A DNA stretch of 25,384 nucleotides from Opitutales bacterium (GTDB lineage: Bacteria; Verrucomicrobiota; Verrucomicrobiia; Opitutales; UBA9783): positions 1 to 25,384 of the forward strand of contig JBKSMP010000027.1 in NCBI GenBank assembly GCA_046881885.1. The letters are read 5' to 3'. The first letter of the stretch is position 1; every line of letters starts with the position of its first letter. The notes under the pieces are model-generated. The model saw only the letters and a program-made list of their open reading frames with translations, did not search any database and had not been told where the DNA came from. A program made the translations under genes and the position numbers. Positions 1-25,384 of the stretch are shown here, piece after piece.

Positions 1-11
1 AAAAATTTTTA

Positions 12-896
12 ATGCAAAAATTAGGACTTCAAAAAAGTGAAGAGATTTTACAGTCAAAATACAAAGTTTTTTGGCAAAACGGAAAAAATGACGATTCTCT
101 TGACGAAATGACCGTTATCTTAGGAAGTGAACGAAGAATTGCTTTTAGAAAGATTGCTTACATTAGCGAAACTTTGTTTTTACAAGAATTTTATAATGAT
201 CCTTCTATTATTTCTTGGTCACATTTTGCTGCACACTCTATTGAATTTTGGAAAAAAATGATTTTAATACTAGGGAAATCCTATGTAAACAATATAATAA
301 CTTACGACAAATTTGGATTAACCTTATCAAAATTAAGATTATTTTCTTATCAAAAGTGTCAGAATGTTAATCATAAATATCACTTTGAATATACAAATAG
401 ATCTGATATGGATGTTTTTTTACAAGATGTAGAGAATACAATAAAACACTTAATGATGAAATCTTTACAAAAAATTGTTTTAATTAAAGGTATGCGTATG
501 GAAAAAGTAGCTGAAAAGATAGAAAAGTTTGAAATATTACAATCAAACGAAGGAATTGCTTTACTTCCTAAATATTCAAAACATATTGTTTTAAATGATT
601 ATAAAAGTATTGATTTAGCAAAGGAAGAAAATGATTCTCTTATGAGGCAATACATTAACTTTCCTTTAAATGAAAAGTCTTTTCAATATTTCCAAACAAT
701 AATGAGACAAAAGAAAGTTTTAGTTATTGTAGATGACGAAAGGTTGGCCTATAAATATTGGCTTTCAAACAAACATCCTACAAGGATTTTTTCAGAAGCT
801 AAAAATCTGCAAAAGGTTTTGGAAAATAATTACAATAGTGATATAATGCTTTATTATAATGGTATCTGTTTTCAAAAAATTGTAATAAAAGATTAA
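12..896 (+). CDS. hypothetical protein (294 aa), AT-rich orphan; true start may lie left of the window
   Basis: Long uninterrupted ORF in very AT-rich DNA, where stops are frequent by chance. The frame stays open back to position 3. No motif or signal peptide recognised. Confidence 0.55.
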   Translation: MQKLGLQKSEEILQSKYKVFWQNGKNDDSLDEMTVILGSERRIAFRKIAYISETLFLQEFYNDPSIISWSHFAAHSIEFWKKMILILGKSYVNNIITYDKFGLTLSKLRLFSYQKCQNVNHKYHFEYTNRSDMDVFLQDVENTIKHLMMKSLQKIVLIKGMRMEKVAEKIEKFEILQSNEGIALLPKYSKHIVLNDYKSIDLAKEENDSLMRQYINFPLNEKSFQYFQTIMRQKKVLVIVDDERLAYKYWLSNKHPTRIFSEAKNLQKVLENNYNSDIMLYYNGICFQKIVIKD

Positions 897-911
897 GACA
901 ATATTAATCTG

Positions 912-1496
912 TTAAAAAATAGAATTGGGTGTTACATTGCGAATAAAACTTCTTATGTATTTTCCAATGGGTGTTGTATAGTCAGGCATACAACGTATAG
1001 CACCTTTTAAGTGAATTGTGTCCAAAATTAACCCCAGCTCTATTTTCTTACAAAAATCCCATGGGATTGTGTAATTTTTTTTATTTGCGATTTTAAATAA
1101 ATAAGCATATCTGCAATAAAAATAATGATCTGGATAATCTATTCTTTCTTGTTTACTACACCAATCATGAAAAGTTTCTTCTGTATGGATAAGTTTTTCT
1201 AGTTCTTGTTTTTCCTCTTCATTATAGATTTTCCAATATTCATCTTCACAAATTTGTATTATTCCTTCAGGGAAGTTGAATTTTATGCCAATATATTCAA
1301 ACTTGTCATCATACTCATTCCATAATTCATGGGTCCAATCGCTAAGTTCTTGTGGCAACTCCACGCCATCGATTCCTTCTGCTACTAGCGTCGGACCTCC
1401 TTCATAAAATACATCTATCCGATTCCCCCAGGCACAGAGCCCGCTTAGCCCGATTATTACTCCAGCGCAAACTAATTTCGTGATTTTACTTAACAT
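912..1496 (-). CDS. hypothetical secreted or membrane-anchored protein (194 aa)
   Basis: The ATG is preceded on the minus strand by AAGGAGG-ACAA-ATG (plus 1497-1507), a canonical Shine-Dalgarno. The N-terminus MLSKITKLVCAGVIIGLSGLCAWG is a hydrophobic signal/anchor segment. The rest is acidic and Trp/Tyr/Cys-containing, with no recognisable family. Confidence 0.6.
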   Translation of the reverse strand: MLSKITKLVCAGVIIGLSGLCAWGNRIDVFYEGGPTLVAEGIDGVELPQELSDWTHELWNEYDDKFEYIGIKFNFPEGIIQICEDEYWKIYNEEEKQELEKLIHTEETFHDWCSKQERIDYPDHYFYCRYAYLFKIANKKNYTIPWDFCKKIELGLILDTIHLKGAIRCMPDYTTPIGKYIRSFIRNVTPNSIF

Positions 1497-1569
1497 TTGT
1501 CCTCCTTGTGTATGTTTTTCGTTCTATTTGCAGTGTCCGTGGCTTTCAGCCGTCCTTTTTACTTTGTAG

Positions 1570-1851
1570 CAGCTTTTTATCTCTTCTGTAAAGTACAAAA
1601 CTGATTTTTCTATTGTCCTGCTCACCGATCCTGACAATCTAGAAAAATGGGAATATCATCTCCGAGAGCAGAAATTTCCATTCTTTATTACCTTGGCTCA
1701 TGAGTTTTTACATGCATTGAATCAGTTAGAGAGAATTGCTAAAGTTTTTCGATGGCTAAAAGTAAAAAATGTGCAAGATTTGGTTAATAAATTGGATAAT
1801 CTAACTCAAGAAGATGCCTTTTTTAAGATAATACACTTATTTAATAAATAG
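1570..1851 (+). pseudogene. remnant of a zinc-metalloprotease-like gene (HExxH motif), lacking an N-terminus and start codon
   Basis: My translation of frame 1 gives QLFISSVKYKTDFSIVLLTDPDNLEKWEYHLREQKFPFFITLAHEFLHALNQLERIAKVFRWLKVKNVQDLVNKLDNLTQEDAFFKIIHLFNK*. It is bounded by TAG at 1567-1569 and TAG at 1849-1851. It contains no Met, and HEFLH lies at 1699-1713. Confidence 0.35.
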
Positions 1852-2290
1852 AGGATCTGCAAAAGTCTGGGAGAAAAAACGAGCGTAAGAAATATTGGGT
1901 TTCTAGTTAAGGTATTTAGCGAAGGAGAGGTTGTTTTCACAAAACTTTCTTTCTCGCCTTCAAATGGCTAACGACCATTGGTTTGTTCTTTTAGTATTTC
2001 TCAATTCAACAAAGGCATCTTGCTCCTCTGCGTATCTTGCCAATTGCCTTCAAAAACTTAATTTCACCTTTTTAGAAAATGTTTGTTACTTTGCATCTCT
2101 TGCTTCTGTATTCTCATGTGACCTTTATCAGTTTCACTTCAATCTTGATTCTGCACGGCTTCATTTTTTTAATGTTTTGTCTATTAGTTATCGGATTCTA
2201 AAAAATATTACGGGTTATGCCCCTAATATTTTATCTTTTAAAATGGAAAAATCCTTAAGATTTTTAGGTTGTTTTGCTTGGGCAATCTTC

Positions 2291-4168
2291 TTATTTTTTT
2301 ACTTTTTTTGCCTTGTTTTTGTGGTATTCAACCCCCAAATCCATAGCAGCTTGAAGATCGCTCTTTAATAACTCTGCATTAAACAAGCAATCTAAAGACA
2401 AATAAGTTTTGCCTATTTTTCCATCTAATGGTTTAAATTTCAAACATGTGTAAGTTCCGAAATGTTGTGCCGCAACAAAATTTTTTACTTTTATATTTTT
2501 TAACATGCGTATTAAATTCTCTGCAATTGCAAGAATTTTCTTATTTGATGCTTTAACATCAGTAGTATGTGCTTCAAAATATGCATTTTGAACAGCCATA
2601 AAACTCTGTTTTATATCATTTATTTTTATTTGTGTTTCTTTTAAGCTTTTTATCATTTTTTTCGCCTTGACAATATTTTTCTTCTTTTGGTCTTTTACTT
2701 TTAGTTTCGGATTTTGTAAACATTCTATAGGTAAAAAATTATCTTTATCAAGGCACTTAACATATTCATTTAGATCTGTTAAACTTAATGTACAGTATCT
2801 TTCAATTAAATAAAATGGATCTTCGTAAGCCCAAACATTTAAAGTTTCATAAAAATTTTCCATTCCACAAACTGTACTTAAAAAACTTTTATAAGGTTCT
2901 CTTAAAACTTTGCTCATTACTTTACCAATTTTCATCAAAAGCTTCATTCCGCGTTCTTTTACAGGATCATAACCAATATTACTTCCTAATGGCAAGCAAG
3001 GCACAGGATCTGCATAACTACAATATCCTAAAATATTTTGCCTCCCCATAACATTTTCGATTGTTTTTAAAGTATTGGCATCACCAATAGCTCTAGCAGG
3101 CGATAAACAAATAGCATGAGCTATATTAAATACCTTATTGTCAAAATTATTTCCATATAAATATTTTCCAACCCAACTTGTTATGTAAGGTGCAGCAATT
3201 TGGGTCAATCCGCCTCCTTGACTATGTCCAACAATATATAGCTTTATACTACATTTATTAACTTTATCTACTTGTTCCCTCAATTCTATTCCAGAAATAG
3301 AAGAATCATTTAAGTCTAAAGCATTAAAGTTTTTTATTTTTAATTTCTCAAATAAACTTTTAAGAATACCTTCTGTACTTATTTTAGAAGAAATTATTTT
3401 ATTGTAAAAACCTTCATGCAGTGATAATTTTTGTGCAGAATTTAATAAAAAGCTGCTAGGTATTTCCAAGCTTTGGGGATCTACATTTACTTTCTTTGCA
3501 TTAAAGTTTGTCATCCAACTTGCTCCCCCAACGCCTCCTAAAAATTGAAAGTTTTCACCTTGAGAACCTTCTTCTATAGCAAAAATTTGGATTTGTTTTT
3601 CGCTTCCTTTTAAAATTTCTTTATAAGCAATCATTCCCATAATACCATTTTCTTTTATTCTAGCAGCTCCATGCGTTCCATAAATAAAACCTGCAATTTT
3701 AACTCTTCTATTAGTAATCAATTTTTTAAAAGCAGGAGAAGCATCATTATTATTATCCTCCATTTTATTTTGAGGAAACAAAACCTTATCTTCTTGATAA
3801 CGTTTAGTTGTTTGGTATAGACACTGTGTTGCAACTAAAATGTCATAAAAAGTGTTTTTATCTAAAACATTTGTATCTATTTTACGGTTAGATCCTGTTT
3901 CTAGCCATAATTCTTTGGATTGTTTGGATAACAAGAATTGATTTCGTGCAGGTGCTATAGGTTTTTTTGGCCTTCTTGCCCGTACATCTCTTCTATTAAA
4001 TTTAGTTCTTTTAAAAGAATTAGGAGCTTTTGTAGAATTTTTGATATCATCTAAAACAAAAGTCTCATCTTTAAATCTATCTTCAACGGAAAAATTATCT
4101 GCTGATTTTGCATAAGCAGTCGATTTTAATGATAAAACAATTCCAATAAAACAAAAAAAATGCTTCAT
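2291..4168 (-). CDS. secreted class-3-lipase-like alpha/beta hydrolase (625 aa) with a long C-terminal extension
   Basis: N-terminal signal peptide MKHFFCFIGIVLSLKSTAYA. The order of conserved blocks is typical of the Lipase_3 family: HEGFY, nucleophile elbow VGHSQGGG (GHSQGG at plus 3212-3229, Ser codon 3221-3223), SPARAIGD, and the Asp block YADPVPCLPLG. About 220 further residues follow, ending in the Lys-rich tail HKNKAKKVKK. Confidence 0.7.
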   Translation of the reverse strand: MKHFFCFIGIVLSLKSTAYAKSADNFSVEDRFKDETFVLDDIKNSTKAPNSFKRTKFNRRDVRARRPKKPIAPARNQFLLSKQSKELWLETGSNRKIDTNVLDKNTFYDILVATQCLYQTTKRYQEDKVLFPQNKMEDNNNDASPAFKKLITNRRVKIAGFIYGTHGAARIKENGIMGMIAYKEILKGSEKQIQIFAIEEGSQGENFQFLGGVGGASWMTNFNAKKVNVDPQSLEIPSSFLLNSAQKLSLHEGFYNKIISSKISTEGILKSLFEKLKIKNFNALDLNDSSISGIELREQVDKVNKCSIKLYIVGHSQGGGLTQIAAPYITSWVGKYLYGNNFDNKVFNIAHAICLSPARAIGDANTLKTIENVMGRQNILGYCSYADPVPCLPLGSNIGYDPVKERGMKLLMKIGKVMSKVLREPYKSFLSTVCGMENFYETLNVWAYEDPFYLIERYCTLSLTDLNEYVKCLDKDNFLPIECLQNPKLKVKDQKKKNIVKAKKMIKSLKETQIKINDIKQSFMAVQNAYFEAHTTDVKASNKKILAIAENLIRMLKNIKVKNFVAAQHFGTYTCLKFKPLDGKIGKTYLSLDCLFNAELLKSDLQAAMDLGVEYHKNKAKKVKK

Positions 4169-4181
4169 GTATTAAAACGAA

Positions 4182-4196
4182 GCAATACTTATGCCA
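4182..4196 (-). promoter_or_regulatory. sigma-54-type -24/-12 promoter candidate upstream of the lipase-like gene
   Basis: The minus strand reads gtt-TGGCAT-AAGTA-TTGC-T. This is one mismatch (final C to T of the -24 hexamer) from TGGCAC-N5-TTGC, with the invariant GG and GC at correct spacing. It fills the 31-bp gap between the tRNA 3' end (4200) and the ATG (4168). The predicted TSS is about 4170. Confidence 0.4.
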
Positions 4197-4199
4197 AAC

Positions 4200-4273
4200 T
4201 GGTGCAGGTGGACGGAATCGAACCGACGAATCCAGCTTGGAAGGCTGGAGTTTTACCACTAAACTACACCTGC
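4200..4273 (-). tRNA. tRNA-Gly (anticodon UCC), CCA encoded
   Basis: The reverse complement is GCAGGTGTAGTTTAGTGGTAAAACTCCAGCCTTCCAAGCTGGATTCGTCGGTTCGATTCCGTCCACCTGCACCA. Acceptor stem GCAGGTG/CACCTGC, D stem GTTT/AAAC, anticodon stem CCAGC/GCTGG with loop CTTCCAA, T loop TTCGATT. There is one T-T mismatch in the T stem. Confidence 0.88.
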
Positions 4274-8864: not shown

Positions 8865-8926
8865 TTGGCTCAAATTTGGTACAACTTGGCACAAATGTGT
8901 CATAAGTGTGTCGTTTTGGCACAAAA
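8865..8926 (+). promoter_or_regulatory. phased array of TTGG(C/T)(A/T)C-A-rich motifs; possible upstream activator/enhancer sites
   Basis: TTGGCTCAAAT at 8865, TTGGTACAAC at 8876, TTGGCACAAA at 8886 and TTGGCACAAAA at 8916, all in the same orientation. Offsets are 11, 10 and 30 bp. A fifth copy at 8998 is the -24 element of the sigma-54-type promoter, 82 bp further on. Confidence 0.4.
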
Positions 8927-8998
8927 AATGACAGTAATAAACTATCTGAAAGAAAGGTTTTTGTTTAAAGTCCGCATAAATACTAGGATTTGAAAAGT

Positions 8999-9013
8999 TG
9001 GCACGATTTTTGC
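8999..9013 (+). promoter_or_regulatory. sigma-54-type -24/-12 promoter, exact consensus, upstream of dnaK
   Basis: TGGCAC (8999-9004), GATTT, TTGC (9010-9013), an exact match to TGGCAC-N5-TTGC and to the extended form TGGCACG-N4-TTGC. It lies 17 nt from the -12 C to the dnaK ATG, so the predicted TSS is about 9025. Confidence 0.55.
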
Positions 9014-9029
9014 GAAATAAGAAGGTATT

Positions 9030-10982
9030 ATGAATAAAGTTACAGGAAAAGTTTTAGGTATTGACCTTGGAACAACAAATTCGTGTATGTCCATTATGGA
9101 AGGTAACGAACCAGTTGTTATTCCAAATGCAGAAGGAGCTCGTACGACACCTTCGATTGTTGCATTTACCAAGACCGGCGAACGTTTGGTTGGGCAGGCT
9201 GCAAAACGTCAGGCAATCACCAATCCAAAAAATACTATTTTTTCGGCAAAGCGCTTAATTGGTCGCAAATATAATGAAGTTAAGTCCAGTCTACAAGGCT
9301 TACCTTATAAGGTTGTAGAAGGTAAAAACGGTGATGCTTGGATCGAGTGTGAAGTAGGGGATAAAACCGAACGTTTTGCTCCAGAACAAATTTCGGCTAT
9401 GGTTTTGGCGAAATTAAAGGCGGATGCAGAGGCTTACTTAGGCGAACCGATTAAACAAGCTGTTATTACCGTTCCTGCCTATTTTAATGATTCGCAACGT
9501 CAAGCGACCAAGGACGCCGGAGCGATTGCAGGTTTAGAAGTTTTGCGTATTATCAATGAGCCTACAGCTGCTTCGCTTGCTTACGGTTTGGATAAGAAAA
9601 AAGATGAAACGATTGCCGTATTCGATGTTGGAGGAGGAACATTTGATATTTCCGTTTTGGAAATTGGTGATGGTGTTTTTGAAGTAAAAGCGACCAACGG
9701 TGACACTGTATTGGGTGGTGACGACTGGGATGATGCCATTATTACTTGGTTGGCAGATTCCTTCCAGCAAGAAAATGGAATTGATTTGCGTCAAGATCCA
9801 ATGGCACGTCAACGCTTAAAAGAAGAAGCGGAAAAGGCCAAGATCGCGTTGTCGTCTGCACAAGAAACGGATATCAACTTACCCTTTATTACAGCAGATG
9901 CTAGTGGTCCTAAGCACTTAAATGTGCACTTAACACGTTCGAAGTTGGAACAAATCTGTGATCCTTTGTATGAACGGTTAAAGACACCATTTTTTGCCTG
10001 CTTAAAGGATGCGGGAATTGATGATAAAAGCATCAATGAGCTTGTTTTGGTTGGTGGTATGACTCGTTCTCCTAAAGTCGTTGAATTAGCTAATGCTTTA
10101 GTTGGAAAACAAGCACACAAAGGTGTTAACCCGGATGAAGTGGTTGCCATTGGTGCAGCTATTCAAGGTGGTGTTTTAAAGGGTGATGTAAACGATATCT
10201 TGCTCTTAGACGTAACACCATTAACATTGGGTATTGAAACAGCAGGGGGTATTTCGACCCCAATGATCGATCGTAACACAACCATTCCGACCAAGAAAAC
10301 ACAGACTTTCTCAACGTATGCGGATAATCAAACTGCAGTCGATATTCACGTGCTTCAAGGTGAACGTTCGTTAGCTAAAGACAATAAGACTTTGGGCGTG
10401 TTCCGTTTAGAGGGTATTCCTATCGCACATCGTGGTGAACCAAAAATCGAAGTTACCTTTGATATCGATGCTAGTGGTATCTTGCATGTAACCGCTAAAG
10501 ATGTTGCAACTGGTAAAGACAAGAAGATTACTATTACAGGTTCGTCTGGGTTCTCGGATGAAGAAGTAGAACGTTTGCGTAAAGAAGCCGAACAATTCGC
10601 TGAGCAGGACAAGAAAGAACGCGATCGAATTGAAACCTTCAATCGTTTGGATACTCTTGTTTATCAAGCAGAGAAGCAAATCAAAGAGTTTGGAGACAAG
10701 TTGCCAGCCGACAAGAAGGAGTCTTTAGAAGCTAAAATTGCCGATATTAAAAAGGTTTTAGAGAATAAAGACGCCGATGGTGAATTGCTCAAGAACAAGG
10801 AAACGGAATTGATGGATTTGTTGCAAGCGATTGGAAGTGCTATGTATGCAAATGCTTCGGCAGAGAATGGTCAACCCAATCCACAAGCTGAACCACAAGC
10901 CAATGCAGGTTCTGCGAAAAAAGAAGATGGAAATGTCGTTGACGCCGATTTCGAAGTTGTTGATGATGGAAAAAAGGAATAA
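9030..10982 (+). CDS. dnaK: molecular chaperone DnaK (Hsp70)
   Basis: 650 aa. Contains [17 protein letters not shown]-type ([13 protein letters not shown]) and VLVGGMTR motifs. Full-length Hsp70 with an acidic C-terminus. Confidence 0.97.
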
Positions 10983-11010
10983 AGTTTTAATCTTAAGTTA
11001 GGAAAAAATT

Positions 11011-11307
11011 ATGTCAGTAAAAATACAACCTATTGGAGACCGTGTTTTAGTAAAAATGGTTGAAGATGCGGAACAAATTAAAGGTGGAATTATCATTCCG
11101 GATTCTGCTAAGGAAAAGCCTCAGGAAGCTGAAGTGATTGCTTTAGGTACCGGAAAGACCGATAAGGAAGGTCGTACGATTGCTTTCCAAGTTAAAGCTG
11201 GAGACCGCGTTTTAATTAGCAAATACGGTGGAACTGAGGTCAAATTTGGAGACGAAAAGTATACTTTGTTGCGCGAAGACGACATTTTGGGAATTATTAA
11301 TAAATAA
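11011..11307 (+). CDS. groES: co-chaperonin GroES
   Basis: 98 aa. [11 protein letters not shown] and [18 protein letters not shown] (mobile loop) are typical of Hsp10. It starts 28 nt after the dnaK stop. Confidence 0.96.
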
Positions 11308-12954
<1,647 letters not shown>

Positions 12955-13123: not shown

Positions 13124-13663
13124 ATGAAAAAAGAAATCGTAAAAGGGTTAAGTATTTTTGGGTTAAGTTTAATCATGAATTTAGGATTAGCATTTGGTGG
13201 CGGCAGTGAAAAATATAGTCTTTATCAATTGGATCAGCTTTACGCGTATTGCCAAGGAAATGAAGGAGATTGGCCAAGGGTTTTGGAAAACACAAAAGAA
13301 GCCGTTTTAGCAATGCTAGCCGACGAAGATTACAAACCAAGCAATACGGATTTGATGGCAGTAAACTCTTTCTGTTGTGGTTGCAACTATTATCTTATCA
13401 GTTGGTTTATGAAATCTAAATTTTATAACGAAGCCAAACATGCTGAATGCTTAAAAAATTTATTTAGATTATCTCACAAGATGGCGTGTATGTCTGACAT
13501 GGAACCAGAAGAGACTGTAAAAATGGAACAATACAAAGTCTTAATGGAGCAGCAATTTAAGAACGATAAAAATCTTTTAAATATCATAACCGCTACTCCA
13601 TTTTCAGAGCTAGCAAAGCTAGCTGCAGGTATTATTCAAAGTAATATTGACTGGGGTGAATAG
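13124..13663 (+). CDS. hypothetical secreted protein (179 aa from ATG 13124; the track ORF extends to 13031)
   Basis: The internal Met gives MKKEIVKGLSIFGLSLIMNLGLAFGG, a plausible signal peptide. The 31 codons upstream run into the groEL terminator region and look non-coding. No recognisable family. Confidence 0.55.
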   Translation: MKKEIVKGLSIFGLSLIMNLGLAFGGGSEKYSLYQLDQLYAYCQGNEGDWPRVLENTKEAVLAMLADEDYKPSNTDLMAVNSFCCGCNYYLISWFMKSKFYNEAKHAECLKNLFRLSHKMACMSDMEPEETVKMEQYKVLMEQQFKNDKNLLNIITATPFSELAKLAAGIIQSNIDWGE

Positions 13664-14939
13664 AATTGACTCCTGCAAGCTCTTTTACAATTTCTTTAAT
13701 ACCTTCAGTAATTGTTAGCTCGAGCGTCCAGTGCTCTGAATAAGGCTTGTAATAGTCTTTGGTGAAATCCTTTTTAAAAGTATAGATATCTAAGCACTTT
13801 TGGCGCTTCTGAAACCAAAAATTACAATGCCCCGTCCCATTGCACTGTCCAGCCTTACAAAACCTGCAATTCTCTCTTGGGTCCCTGCAACAAAAGGAAC
13901 AATAATGCCAATATACATTCTGAGTGATTTTATTTTTACCAATCTTATATAAACTCAACAAATTAAAACACACTGACGATCTTTTAGACGCGTCTATAGC
14001 TTTTTGCAATTCTTCTGCAGCAGTTTGTGAATGGAAATTAGCTAAAACAGCTTTTCCGTATTTTAGTACCTGAGCATCTAAAACCTTAAACATGAAGAAG
14101 TTTTTATTCATAGTTAACCAAGGAACTAATTTACACGAATTACAAGCTTCAAAAAAGGAATATACTGGACTACTCAATTGCATGTCTAAAGCAAAACTTG
14201 CCGGCAATAGGAGCCGTAAAATTTTTGCATATTTTATGACATCATCAAGTTCCCCTTCTTTTTCTATAAGATCTTTTTTTTCTAATTTATAAGTTTTTAG
14301 CACCGAATGAAAAGAATTCAAGATCGTATGAATTTGAAATTCGGTATGGCGTAATTGATCTAAGTTTTGAATATTTTTTGGGCAATCATTTAACACGGCC
14401 TTTTTCGCATTCTCTAAAGAAGCGATTGGTGTTTTTAGCCTATCGGCTTGATGGTCTATAAATTGCTTTTGCCAGTCTTCGCTTGTTGCCTCAGTAGCTA
14501 AATTGATATAGTTTTTTATTTCATTTTCGGAGGGTGTTAAAATAATGCTTGCTTCACTAAATTCTTTTTCAACACTTAACTTTTTTTCTATGGGATTATA
14601 TTTCTCAAAAATGTTCGGACTAAAATCAATTTTGCCGCTCTCATCTATTGATCCAACCAAAGCAACAATATCCTCTAGAGGAACGACGATAACATCAGGA
14701 CTTTTTTCAATCTCTGGATTCTGTTTAGAAAAATAATCACCGCTCTTTAGGACAATCGTCTGGCCGACACAATTTTTATAAGCAAGAACATTACCAGATT
14801 TTTTATAATGACTTTCAGACGGATTTGCATAAGACTCAATAATAGCTTTAGGTTCAGTCGCGAAACTAAAATTAAAACCCGTTACCACCAGCAAAGAAGC
14901 TTGGATAAGTTTATGAGTAATCGTTTTTATAATCTTCAT
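13632..14939 (-). CDS. hypothetical secreted protein (435 aa) with a C-terminal Cys-rich module
   Basis: ATG at 14939 gives MKIIKTITHKLIQASLLVVTGFNFSFA, signal-like. The track's TTG start at 14996 coincides with the sigma-54 -24 element and is rejected. There are 9 Cys within 36 residues (CSFCCRDPRENCRFCKAGQCNGTGHCNFWFQKRQKC, plus 13794-13901). Confidence 0.6.
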   Translation of the reverse strand: MKIIKTITHKLIQASLLVVTGFNFSFATEPKAIIESYANPSESHYKKSGNVLAYKNCVGQTIVLKSGDYFSKQNPEIEKSPDVIVVPLEDIVALVGSIDESGKIDFSPNIFEKYNPIEKKLSVEKEFSEASIILTPSENEIKNYINLATEATSEDWQKQFIDHQADRLKTPIASLENAKKAVLNDCPKNIQNLDQLRHTEFQIHTILNSFHSVLKTYKLEKKDLIEKEGELDDVIKYAKILRLLLPASFALDMQLSSPVYSFFEACNSCKLVPWLTMNKNFFMFKVLDAQVLKYGKAVLANFHSQTAAEELQKAIDASKRSSVCFNLLSLYKIGKNKITQNVYWHYCSFCCRDPRENCRFCKAGQCNGTGHCNFWFQKRQKCLDIYTFKKDFTKDYYKPYSEHWTLELTITEGIKEIVKELAGVNSIHPSQYYFE

Positions 14940-14980
14940 CGTTTTTAAAATTTTGTTATCGTTTGATAAAAGAAAAGGAA

Positions 14981-14995
14981 GCAAAGATTGTGCCA
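14981..14995 (-). promoter_or_regulatory. sigma-54-type -24/-12 promoter, exact consensus, upstream of the Cys-rich secreted orphan
   Basis: The minus strand reads aatttT-TGGCAC-AATCT-TTGC-T (plus gcaaagattgtgcca). It is an exact TGGCAC-N5-TTGC match and is near-identical to the dnaK copy. The predicted TSS is about 14969, giving a roughly 30-nt leader to the ATG at 14939. Confidence 0.55.
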
Positions 14996-15057
14996 AAATT
15001 TTTGCAGCTCAATTCTATGAATTTAATTACAAAATTAGAAACTCCACGAATTCGCTC

Positions 15058-15085
15058 TTGACGCAAAATAGGGCTTTGGTAATCT
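15058..15085 (+). promoter_or_regulatory. sigma-70-type promoter candidate for prfB
   Basis: TTGACG (15058-15063), 16-nt spacer ending in TGG, TAATCT (15080-15085), then 13 nt to the ATG at 15099. No Shine-Dalgarno is visible. Confidence 0.35.
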
Positions 15086-15098
15086 TTTTTATAATTGC

Positions 15099-22876: not shown

Positions 22877-23053
22877 TTATAACTCGACTTCAAGCACTTG
22901 GCGATCGCGATACATACCTGTAACCGGATTAACGCGATGACGCATTACCAAATTACCTTCGGCATCTTTCATAAGTGCAGGCATTTTAAAATTGTGAGCT
23001 CCACGCCGTAAACGACTGCGCATTTTTGATTGTTTTCTCTTTGGTTGTCCCAT
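22877..23053 (-). CDS. rpmF: 50S ribosomal protein L32 (bL32), Cys-less type
   Basis: Not in the ORF track (59 aa). My translation is MGQPKRKQSKMRSRLRRGAHNFKMPALMKDAEGNLVMRHRVNPVTGMYRDRQVLEVEL*. The PKRKxSK N-terminus and H..N..TG.YR.R.V C-terminus are typical of L32. The position upstream of plsX is canonical. Confidence 0.9.
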   Translation of the reverse strand: MGQPKRKQSKMRSRLRRGAHNFKMPALMKDAEGNLVMRHRVNPVTGMYRDRQVLEVEL

Positions 23054-23083
23054 AATTATGAACTCTGTTAAATAATAACTAGT

Positions 23084-23111
23084 AGTAAACCATTGCCTAC
23101 TCTCGCGTCAA
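23084..23111 (-). promoter_or_regulatory. sigma-70-type promoter candidate for the rpmF operon
   Basis: The minus strand reads TTGACG (23111-23106), 16-nt spacer ending in TGG, then TTTACT (23089-23084). It shares TTGACGC...GGC..TGGT...CT with the prfB promoter candidate. Confidence 0.3.
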
Positions 23112-23337
23112 GTTTAATTTCGCATAAAAGCTCCTTTTGTTAAATTAGTAAAAGATAAAAACTTTGAATATTAGGTGATTGTAAAAGCATAGAAAAACTG
23201 AGAAGGATCAAAAAATAAGATAACCTCTTATGTTTGGAAATATTTCTCTTAAAATAGAGTTTTGAATATGTTTTTACCGATTGCTTTTTTCCTTTAGACT
23301 TTTATAAGATGTCTATTATGTATATCATAAGCAGAAT

Positions 23338-23847
23338 ATGATTAAAAAAAATACGATTGGAGTTATTTTATTTATGGGATCAAACTTCATTTGTTTGTCA
23401 AATGTTTTAAAAATTTATCACGAAGCATCGATAATCATTATGAATAAAATCTTAAAAAATGAAGATTTATTATATTTTTCAAAAAATTTTTACATAAAAG
23501 ATATTACTTGTTTCTTTGAAAATATAATTTTAGCTGCTTATGCCTTGACCAATAAAGATAAAAATATGCTAAATATGGCATTCAGTAATTTTGAAATGTT
23601 ATTTGCTGATCCTCCTTTATTAAAAGAGTGTTTGAATAGTTTTTGCATATTGTTTGGTCATAAAAAATATGCTAAACATTTATCCTTAACGGCAATACGT
23701 AATCATTCTAAAGAAATTACTATATTTATTTGTGTGTGTAAAAAAATGGTAGAATGGATGCCGTTGGATTTATCTAAAAATGTCATTACCATTATTGAAA
23801 ACTATGAAAAAGACATAGAAATTTCAAAAGTATTTACTAAAATTTAA
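23338..23847 (+). CDS. hypothetical protein (169 aa), AT-rich orphan
   Basis: An ORF in very AT-rich DNA with a hydrophobic stretch near the N-terminus (IGVILFMGSNFICL). No recognisable motif. Its 3' end overlaps the convergent gene by 11 nt. Confidence 0.45.
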   Translation: MIKKNTIGVILFMGSNFICLSNVLKIYHEASIIIMNKILKNEDLLYFSKNFYIKDITCFFENIILAAYALTNKDKNMLNMAFSNFEMLFADPPLLKECLNSFCILFGHKKYAKHLSLTAIRNHSKEITIFICVCKKMVEWMPLDLSKNVITIIENYEKDIEISKVFTKI

Positions 23848-25384
23848 GCTGTCTGGTCTTAGTCTGCGTCGCATCAATAATTTCTTTAACCTTTTGTTTT
23901 AAAACCAGAACTTGTTTCCATTCTTCATCGGAAAGTTCATCGGGTTTATTTTTTACATTTACGTAACCAGATAGGCGCATAATATCCTTTTCTTCTATGT
24001 AGTCTTCATAGGCATTAAGTAATTTATTTGATCTTTTATTTTTATAAAATCCAAAAGAAATATTTTTTTCTGCTAAAGGTTTTATTAAGTTATTAGTTTC
24101 TTCCACAAACTCAGTTGAATAAATGTTTTCTTCAACACCAAACCAAACAGTTTCTAAATTTTTTATTTTATCTAAGCAATTAATAAAATATTTTACATCT
24201 CTCTGTAAATCTTGACAAATAATAGTTTTGCAAGAAACATTTTTGCCAACTTCTTCTAGCTCATCGCAAAACAAGGTATTACAAGTTACATTTTCCATCA
24301 TAACAATCGTTTTGGGAACAAATAGAATAGCTTCAGTGTTTTTAGGATTAACAATAGGTGTCTTTTCAACTTTTAAACAAGACGCATATTCTATCGGAAC
24401 AGAAAGGGATCCTTCTGTATAATTGTTGGTCAATGCTATTTCTTTAATTTTTATCCGATTTACACGGTTATCATGCACATAAGCATGCAACTGTTTTCTT
24501 AATTCTTTTTCCTCTGTTATTGGAAATAGTTTTTTTTCTGCTAGTATTGTTTTTAGTTTTTCTAGTACTTTTATAAATTCTTTTATTTCCTCTCTTAATC
24601 TGTATTTTTGTTCTCTCAATATCTCTATAAATTCCTCATTTGAAACAGCTTTAGAAATCTTGTCTAAATAAAGCTTTTTTCTAAATTCTTGTTTTAAATT
24701 TAACCCCAAGAGTAATTCCACGCCTTTTTTTAGTTCTTCTATGGATTCACCTTTTAAATATTTTAAAGCTAATTTGAGTTTTTCCTTTAATATTTGTTCT
24801 TCCGAAAAAGGTTTAAAAAAGACTCTTATAGTATCAAAACTTAAGTTTTCAATATCTAACTTAGCAAATTTTAAATAGTCATCAAAAGAGGTAACATTTG
24901 CCTCATAAGCAATTATTTGGCATTTACTTAAATCGTATCTTTTTTCAATTTCATCTTTATCAGCTGCGTTTGCAACTCTAAAAACAACAGGTTTACCATA
25001 TTTAATAAATGTATTATAACATTTCCCAAACCAATCTATATCACGATAAAATCCCCACATAAAAAAACTTTCAATAGAAAATTCATCGGTTTCTTCTATA
25101 GGCACTTCGTCATAATTTGTAAATCCTTGACGCTTAAAAATAATAGGCTTTTTTCCTAGTTTTTTAGCTTTATCTGTATGCAATGATCTAAGCTTGGTAA
25201 GAATTTCATTCAACTCGCGTTCACCAACAAGACATTCTACGATATACTGATCCATACCTTTTTGAATCACAAAACCATTTCTTTCGTAAAAAGCATCCCA
25301 ATCAGGAATCACTTGTACTTTTAATTCTTCGTTTGCTATTGTAGGTTTCTCTTTTACTTCATTGTTAGTTGTTGCCGTTTCTTG
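23837..25384 (-). CDS. hypothetical protein, 5'-partial (at least 515 aa; the frame is open to the window edge)
   Basis: The track start at 25312 is a GTG. The 24 codons upstream (QETATTNNEVKEKPTIANEELKVQ) contain no stop, so the gene probably begins beyond the window. The central K/E-rich helical region looks coiled-coil-like. A tandem NV(T/S)C.T..C..L motif lies at 24206-24292. Confidence 0.6.
   Translation of the reverse strand, partial: QETATTNNEVKEKPTIANEELKVQVIPDWDAFYERNGFVIQKGMDQYIVECLVGERELNEILTKLRSLHTDKAKKLGKKPIIFKRQGFTNYDEVPIEETDEFSIESFFMWGFYRDIDWFGKCYNTFIKYGKPVVFRVANAADKDEIEKRYDLSKCQIIAYEANVTSFDDYLKFAKLDIENLSFDTIRVFFKPFSEEQILKEKLKLALKYLKGESIEELKKGVELLLGLNLKQEFRKKLYLDKISKAVSNEEFIEILREQKYRLREEIKEFIKVLEKLKTILAEKKLFPITEEKELRKQLHAYVHDNRVNRIKIKEIALTNNYTEGSLSVPIEYASCLKVEKTPIVNPKNTEAILFVPKTIVMMENVTCNTLFCDELEEVGKNVSCKTIICQDLQRDVKYFINCLDKIKNLETVWFGVEENIYSTEFVEETNNLIKPLAEKNISFGFYKNKRSNKLLNAYEDYIEEKDIMRLSGYVNVKNKPDELSDEEWKQVLVLKQKVKEIIDATQTKTRQLKF

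Follow-up and report, generated by a model that had tools for sequence, protein, structure and literature searches.

The stretch of DNA analysed here (the window, 25,384 nt from an uncultured Opitutales bacterium) carries a dnaK-groES-groEL operon on the plus strand (9030–12954, with intergene gaps of 28 nt and 9 nt) and, beyond it on the minus strand, a gene at 13632–14939 for a fast-evolving protein of 435 aa, the orphan of what follows. Between groEL and this gene lies a plus-strand gene (13124–13663) for a second orphan, a 179-aa protein with a signal peptide and a CCGC motif; it is convergent with the first and always accompanies it, and the 3' ends of the two genes overlap by 32 bp (13632–13663). 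Co-transcription of the 179-aa gene with groEL is unlikely, given the hairpin with a T-run 3' of groEL that separates the two genes and the gene's own sigma-70-like TTGACA-18-GAGAAT, which ends 7 nt before its ATG. On its upstream side the 435-aa gene is bordered by a 159-bp intergenic region and the divergent prfB, one uninterrupted ORF of 378 aa in which a programmed frameshift site is not visible; with the likely -35 (TTGACG) and -10 of prfB, at 15058–15098 on the plus strand, its leader would be just a few nucleotides long. The order acpS, prfB, orphan, predicted secreted neighbour of 179–213 aa, groEL-groES-dnaK is kept in related loci, and one close homologue lies on a contig of the uncultured Opitutales MAG GCA_964543635.1. 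The order dnaK-groES-groEL also occurs in loci L010, L012–L014, L017 and L023 of the collection of relatives described below. Near one end of the window is a class-3 lipase-like gene (2291–4168, minus strand). Positions 1–4200 and 23000–25384 form islands of 26–31% GC, compared with ~33–45% for the rest; apart from the weak class-3 lipase match, the proteins of both have no Pfam domain, and the two resemble islands of accessory or effector-type genes.

In the intergenic region, the minus strand from 14995 to 14981 reads TGGCACAATCTTTGC and fits TGGCAC-N5-TTGC at 10 of 10 positions, bearing out the first-pass annotation, which had reported an exact sigma-54 consensus here. This is the core found in classical enterobacterial sigma-54 promoters, e.g., glnAp2. 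With one flanking base on each side (14996 to 14980) the sequence is TTGGCACAATCTTTGCT, with the GG at 14994–14993 and the GC at 14982–14981, and the putative -24/-12 core promoter as a whole, TTGGCACAATCTTTGC, occupies 14981–14996. The site is intergenic and co-oriented with the gene at 13632–14939, and its GC is 41 nt from the ATG at 14939. A sister copy, TTGGCACGATTTTTGCG (8998–9014, plus strand), lies before dnaK, and the two differ at 3 of 17 positions, the figure given earlier. On both strands of the window there are two exact matches to TGGCAC-N5-TTGC. Dinucleotide-preserving shuffles (n = 100) gave a mean of 0.06 exact matches, with two reached in one of the 100, and the Poisson probability of two exact matches is ~0.002. 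Both strands were also scanned for sites with GG and GC correctly spaced. The best three intergenic sites were at 8999–9013 (10/10), 14981–14995 (10/10) and 4182–4196 (9/10). Five sites had at most one mismatch; three of these sit 14–42 nt upstream of a co-oriented start codon, and the remaining two, both 9/10, are inside genes. Intergenic DNA makes up 8.6% of the window and strand positions within 60 nt upstream of a start ~2.8%; the probability that three of five sites would fall within 60 nt upstream of a start is ~2e-4. A simple and rather crude consensus scan found no sigma-70-type -35/-10 pair on the minus strand between 14940 and 15098.

The general geometry of sigma-54 promoters places the transcription start relative to the -12 element. 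With C14981 taken as -12, the predicted start is ~14969 and the nearest purine is A14967, so that a start within ~14967–14970 would give a leader of 28–30 nt (14940–14969) ahead of the ATG at 14939. The start at ~14969 and the leader of ~30 nt that had been proposed for this gene are therefore sound as geometry, counted from C14981. Neither a fold signal (z = -0.12) nor an Rfam match was found in the predicted leader. The same element bears on the gene model. The mechanical ORF, 13632–14996, opens with a TTG made up of T14996, T14995 and G14994, which is the TTG of the -24 element, and public gene calls instead give the 435-aa product beginning at ATG 14939. In the orthologues, the aligned start codon is GTG in L004 and ATG in L005 and L007, with an in-frame stop one to five codons upstream, and between the -12 element and the start codon there are indels that are not multiples of three, so that leader length differs from one orthologue to the next. 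Because of these upstream in-frame stops and non-triplet indels, the model beginning at ATG 14939 is correct and the TTG-14996 model is wrong, as had been argued from the overlap of the TTG with the -24 element. The annotated TTG start is a piece of the promoter sequence, and the gene model has been corrected. In L005 (6558–7627), the orphan gene is called in two pieces of 87 and 275 aa.

The 435-aa protein begins with what reads, by eye, as a Sec-type signal sequence, which suggests secretion, and further on has an HTE segment, a CxxC and a C-terminal Cys cluster. It had been described as a Cys-rich secreted orphan. The description holds only for the C-terminal cluster, 8 Cys in ~36 residues, which is not conserved in the homologues and is poorly modelled. 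Among 5.8 billion clusters there are only four close homologues, and an exhaustive HMMER search gave a family of 38 representative clusters. The protein had no match in Pfam, NCBIfam, PDB or BFVD, and none of the 38 family clusters had a Pfam domain or a sequence relative in the PDB. In an alignment of 28 sequences, H198, T199, E200, Q202, P246, S261, C269, W274 and F282 are invariant, and E264 and C266 nearly so. An AF2 model built from the 28 sequences has a pLDDT of 77, exceeding 90 over most of residues 30–320; AF2 with only five sequences gave a pLDDT of 47, too poor for use. Foldseek searches of PDB and BFVD with the 28-sequence model returned nothing at E <= 0.001. The segments RHTE(I/F)Q..ALL and LFEACxxC resemble, by eye, the zinc motifs of deaminases (H198-T-E200 and C266-x-x-C269). 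Membership in the cytidine/nucleotide deaminase superfamily was rejected: hhalign against TadA gave a probability of 0.6%, Pfam yielded no deaminase family and Foldseek was empty. We flag the family as small and fast-evolving, with a fold that is predicted confidently and matches no solved structure. Sigma-54 control is not a property of the whole family, since the distant members L090 and L091, in other organisms, are without the motif; the promoter link is thus specific to this lineage. Two divergent copies of the locus occur in one MAG, each on its own contig (L004/L008 and L009), with orphans of 425 aa and 353 aa. The L009 copy is not a paralogue; it comprises the groEL 3' end, a 213-aa gene and an orphan variant, and is a second strain copy of the locus. 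The presence of so divergent a copy in the same MAG points to strain-level hypervariability of the orphan gene.

Conservation of the orphan promoter was judged from four loci, the window and three syntenic relatives (L004, L005 and L007). L004 and L007 have the exact motif; L005 reads GGGCATAATCTTTGC, with GG, GC and their spacing unchanged. In the four-way alignment, 16 of the 18 columns of the motif are invariant, versus 3–7 of 18 in flanking windows. The orphan protein of L005 is 39% identical to that of the window, compared with 76% for the adjacent 179-aa protein and 95% for DnaK. Set against the 39% identity of the driven protein, the constancy of the motif indicates that the promoter has been held steady before a fast-changing gene, with the proviso that the compared genomes are closely related, as the DnaK identity of 95% shows, so that the power of the conservation is limited. 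Besides the motif, conservation extends over much of the 159-bp intergenic region, namely over a large upstream part that includes the TTGACG (the -35-like element of the divergent prfB) and an A/T-rich block, AGTTTCTAATTTTGTAATTAAATTCATAGAA, at 15013–15043 on the minus strand (-44 to -74). The block is nearly invariant in 4/4 loci and could be a site for an activator or a bending protein, or could belong to the control region of the divergent prfB.

The dnaK promoter offers a parallel case. Its exact-consensus core (8998–9013, plus strand) is invariant in L004 and L005, and the predicted start, 9025, precedes the ATG at 9030 by 5 nt. Upstream, at 8884–8936, is an enhancer-like block with two TTGGCACAA repeats 30 bp apart and a palindrome, TGGCAC-AAAT-GTGTCA (8887–8902), whose centre is ~115 nt upstream of the predicted start. 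In the divergent L005, the block is 100% conserved between flanks that cannot be aligned, and the palindrome is perfect there (TGGCAC-AAAT-GTGCCA). Comparison with L005 leaves only two conserved blocks in the dnaK upstream region, the -24/-12 box with its short leader and 8884–8936. Read from the DNA, this is the classic layout of an enhancer plus a sigma-54 promoter. To set it among relatives, 80 metagenome loci with DnaK relatives were fetched, and the counts that follow use those with usable upstream DNA. All five of the closest DnaK relatives (L011–L015, 65–67% identity) have a site of the TGGC-N-TGC type no more than 90 nt from dnaK, compared with 2 of 68 more distant relatives having a -24/-12 site (Fisher P = 1.4e-6). 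With a conserved enhancer-like palindrome and a -24/-12 site in 5/5 closest relatives, the sigma-54 site claimed earlier for dnaK is credible. From the GC to the dnaK ATG there are 16 nt in the window and 15, 12 and 11 nt in L011, L012 and L013, respectively, giving predicted leaders of 0–5 nt (0–1 nt in L012 and L013). If the start is at 9025, the Shine-Dalgarno-like AAGAAGG before the ATG would be untranscribed. We do not hold this near-leaderless geometry against the dnaK promoter, because it recurs in independent lineages. In L011–L014, GC-rich repeats or palindromes occur ~90–110 nt upstream of the dnaK -24/-12 site, where the window has its enhancer-like block; examples are TGCGCCA(C/T)TCTGTC(C/T)C in L011–L013 and GGCGCA-ATGTG-TGCGCC in L014. 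Alignment by eye revealed no convincing motif common to the dnaK enhancer block and these repeats.

Taken together, the exact consensus, the position and orientation, the conserved island and the lack of a sigma-70-type promoter in the scan make the sigma-54 promoter proposed for the gene at 13632–14939 look genuine, as judged from sequence. We put the probability at about three in four that the minus-strand sequence at 14996–14981 is a functional sigma-54 (RpoN) -24/-12 promoter. A rather unlikely reading is that sigma-54 does bind the site but that another type of promoter chiefly drives the gene; the site would then be vestigial, or the complex on it would be poised or act as a block, with an effect on the divergent prfB promoter as well. 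Many non-productive sigma-54 binding sites are known from genome-wide studies (the subject of PMC4551910), the -35-like TTGACG of prfB is only ~65 bp from the orphan site, and the sigma-70 scan was crude; still, no alternative promoter was found on the minus strand, the site has the location, the orientation and the spacing from the start codon that a working promoter has, and the geometry of the site is kept in four loci despite the indels in the leader. Somewhat more doubtful again is the idea that the site is an operator or activator half-site for a protein other than sigma-54, maybe the one that binds the TTGGCACAA repeats before dnaK. That idea draws on the 10-mer TTTGGCACAA at 14997–14988, which is identical to the dnaK repeat unit at 8915–8924 and fits the unit at 8885–8894 at 9 of 10 bases. 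The dnaK repeats, however, read TGGCACAAATGTGTC and TGGCACAAAAAATGA and are without a TTGC at the -12 spacing, whereas at the orphan site the TTGC is exactly placed and kept in all orthologues, and no palindromic partner half-site accompanies it. That the match is a functionless accident of A/T-rich intergenic sequence is very improbable: two exact matches did turn up in one shuffle of 100 and the compared genomes are near kin, but the statistics on position, orientation and distance, the island of conservation between flanks that have diverged, and the dnaK site, a parallel with support of its own, all speak against it.

We return to the sigma-54 reading and to the lipase-like gene, for which a third sigma-54 promoter had been proposed. 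The site, TGGCATAAGTATTGC (4182–4196, minus strand), is weaker and -24/-12-like, with a 9/10 match, and its predicted start at 4170 is 2 nt before the ATG of the gene at 2291–4168. Its location 5' of a co-oriented start agrees with the proposal. Against it, the -24 part is TGGCAT in the window and TGGTAT in L004, where the site reads TGGTATGAATATTGC, and the site adjoins a tRNA gene. The tRNA-Gly(UCC) gene (4200–4273, minus strand) ends 4 nt before the -24 element, and at this distance the lipase-like transcript could instead arise by read-through from the tRNA promoter. The larger claim, that the chaperone operon and two secreted proteins form a single regulon, was not supported in the sense of one shared activator, no activator site common to the three promoters having come to light. 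Neither the dnaK palindrome (8887–8902) nor the TTGGCACAA repeat pair was found elsewhere in the window, the three upstream regions (dnaK, orphan and lipase-like) have no informative 8–9-mers in common, and near the orphan promoter no activator-binding site is recognisable and the dnaK-type palindrome is absent. To judge by sequence, the three genes may share sigma-54 dependence, though not demonstrably one activator. Sigma-54 activators without a DNA-binding domain exist (PMC7482065).

Compared with glnAp2-type promoters, those described here have the same core, and the dnaK copy also has an NtrC-style palindrome (GCAC core) ~100 nt upstream; unlike glnAp2-type promoters, they precede genes that are not nitrogen genes, and the orphan promoter is without a recognisable enhancer. 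For the presence of sigma-54 there is class-level support: one rpoN was reported in each of 6/6 Opitutia genomes (PMC12316311, supplement), and the same survey gives enhancer-binding proteins for several Opitutia members. The first-pass annotation had gone on to suggest an undescribed regulatory system. We do not sustain that suggestion, since sigma-54 control of chaperones together with exported or Cys-rich proteins is already known in Flavobacterium psychrophilum and Chlamydia trachomatis. In F. psychrophilum, sigma-54 promoters (motif SM4) precede chaperone genes and genes for exported proteins (Guerin et al. 2021, PMC9723704), and, as here, a chaperone operon is paired with secreted orphans. 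That organism belongs to another phylum (Bacteroidota), and start sites were determined there by experiment and one operon was studied by reporter mutagenesis, whereas the evidence here is of sequence and conservation; a further difference is that in the window dnaK, groES and groEL are in one operon that is nearly leaderless. The sigma-54/CtcC regulon of C. trachomatis contains hrcA-grpE(-dnaK), the Cys-rich OmcA and OmcB, secreted effectors and a phospholipase D (Soules et al. 2020, PMC7482065; Huang et al. 2022, PMC8762339). Chlamydia is in the same PVC superphylum, and its regulon parallels the chaperone operon, the Cys-cluster secreted protein and the lipase-like gene described here, although the proteins driven by sigma-54 there are unrelated in sequence to these. 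The Chlamydia activator CtcC is without a DNA-binding domain, and an activator of that kind would account for promoters that lack an enhancer site. The tandem promoter arrangement and the CIRCE element of Chlamydia are not seen here, and the dnaK promoter here, unlike that of Chlamydia, has an enhancer-like palindrome. PSSM predictions have also placed sigma-54 promoters upstream of GroEL, GroES, DnaK, DnaJ, GrpE and IbpA genes (PMC12316311); in that survey the chaperone enrichment is in Planctomycetota and Bacteroidota, not in Opitutia/Verrucomicrobiota, and the present locus with L011–L015 would extend those predictions. Our literature search found no report of sigma-54 control of chaperones or exported proteins for Verrucomicrobiota. 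In sum, the orphan site very probably represents a genuine sigma-54 promoter, one of an already known kind.

On this reading, RNA polymerase with sigma-54 would bind the orphan site as a closed complex, and an AAA+ enhancer-binding activator would spend ATP to open the DNA. Transcription would begin near 14969, and the mRNA would have a leader of ~30 nt followed by the coding sequence for the 435-aa, signal-peptide-bearing, rapidly evolving protein. The neighbouring dnaK-groES-groEL operon would use the same sigma factor with its own upstream enhancer-like palindrome. One may speculate further, and we regard this as a long shot, that in this low-GC Opitutales lineage sigma-54 and a stress-sensing activator replace sigma-32/HrcA as the regulator of heat-shock or proteotoxic stress, with a near-leaderless dnaK-groESL mRNA, and co-induce the hypervariable secreted protein, as an enzyme of unmatched fold with HTE...CxxC, and the lipase-like protein as host- or competitor-directed effectors. 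If this were true, effector release would be coupled to stress.

These findings do not overturn current understanding. Experiments have shown sigma-54 control of chaperones and exported proteins in Flavobacterium and in Chlamydia, predictions place it in Planctomycetota as well, and the window adds sequence-level evidence that such control reaches Opitutales (Verrucomicrobiota). Modest added interest comes from a dnaK geometry that is almost leaderless, from the conservation of the enhancer palindrome before dnaK and from a driven protein whose fold is unmatched. The palindrome and the three starts predicted here are directly testable targets in a poorly studied phylum.
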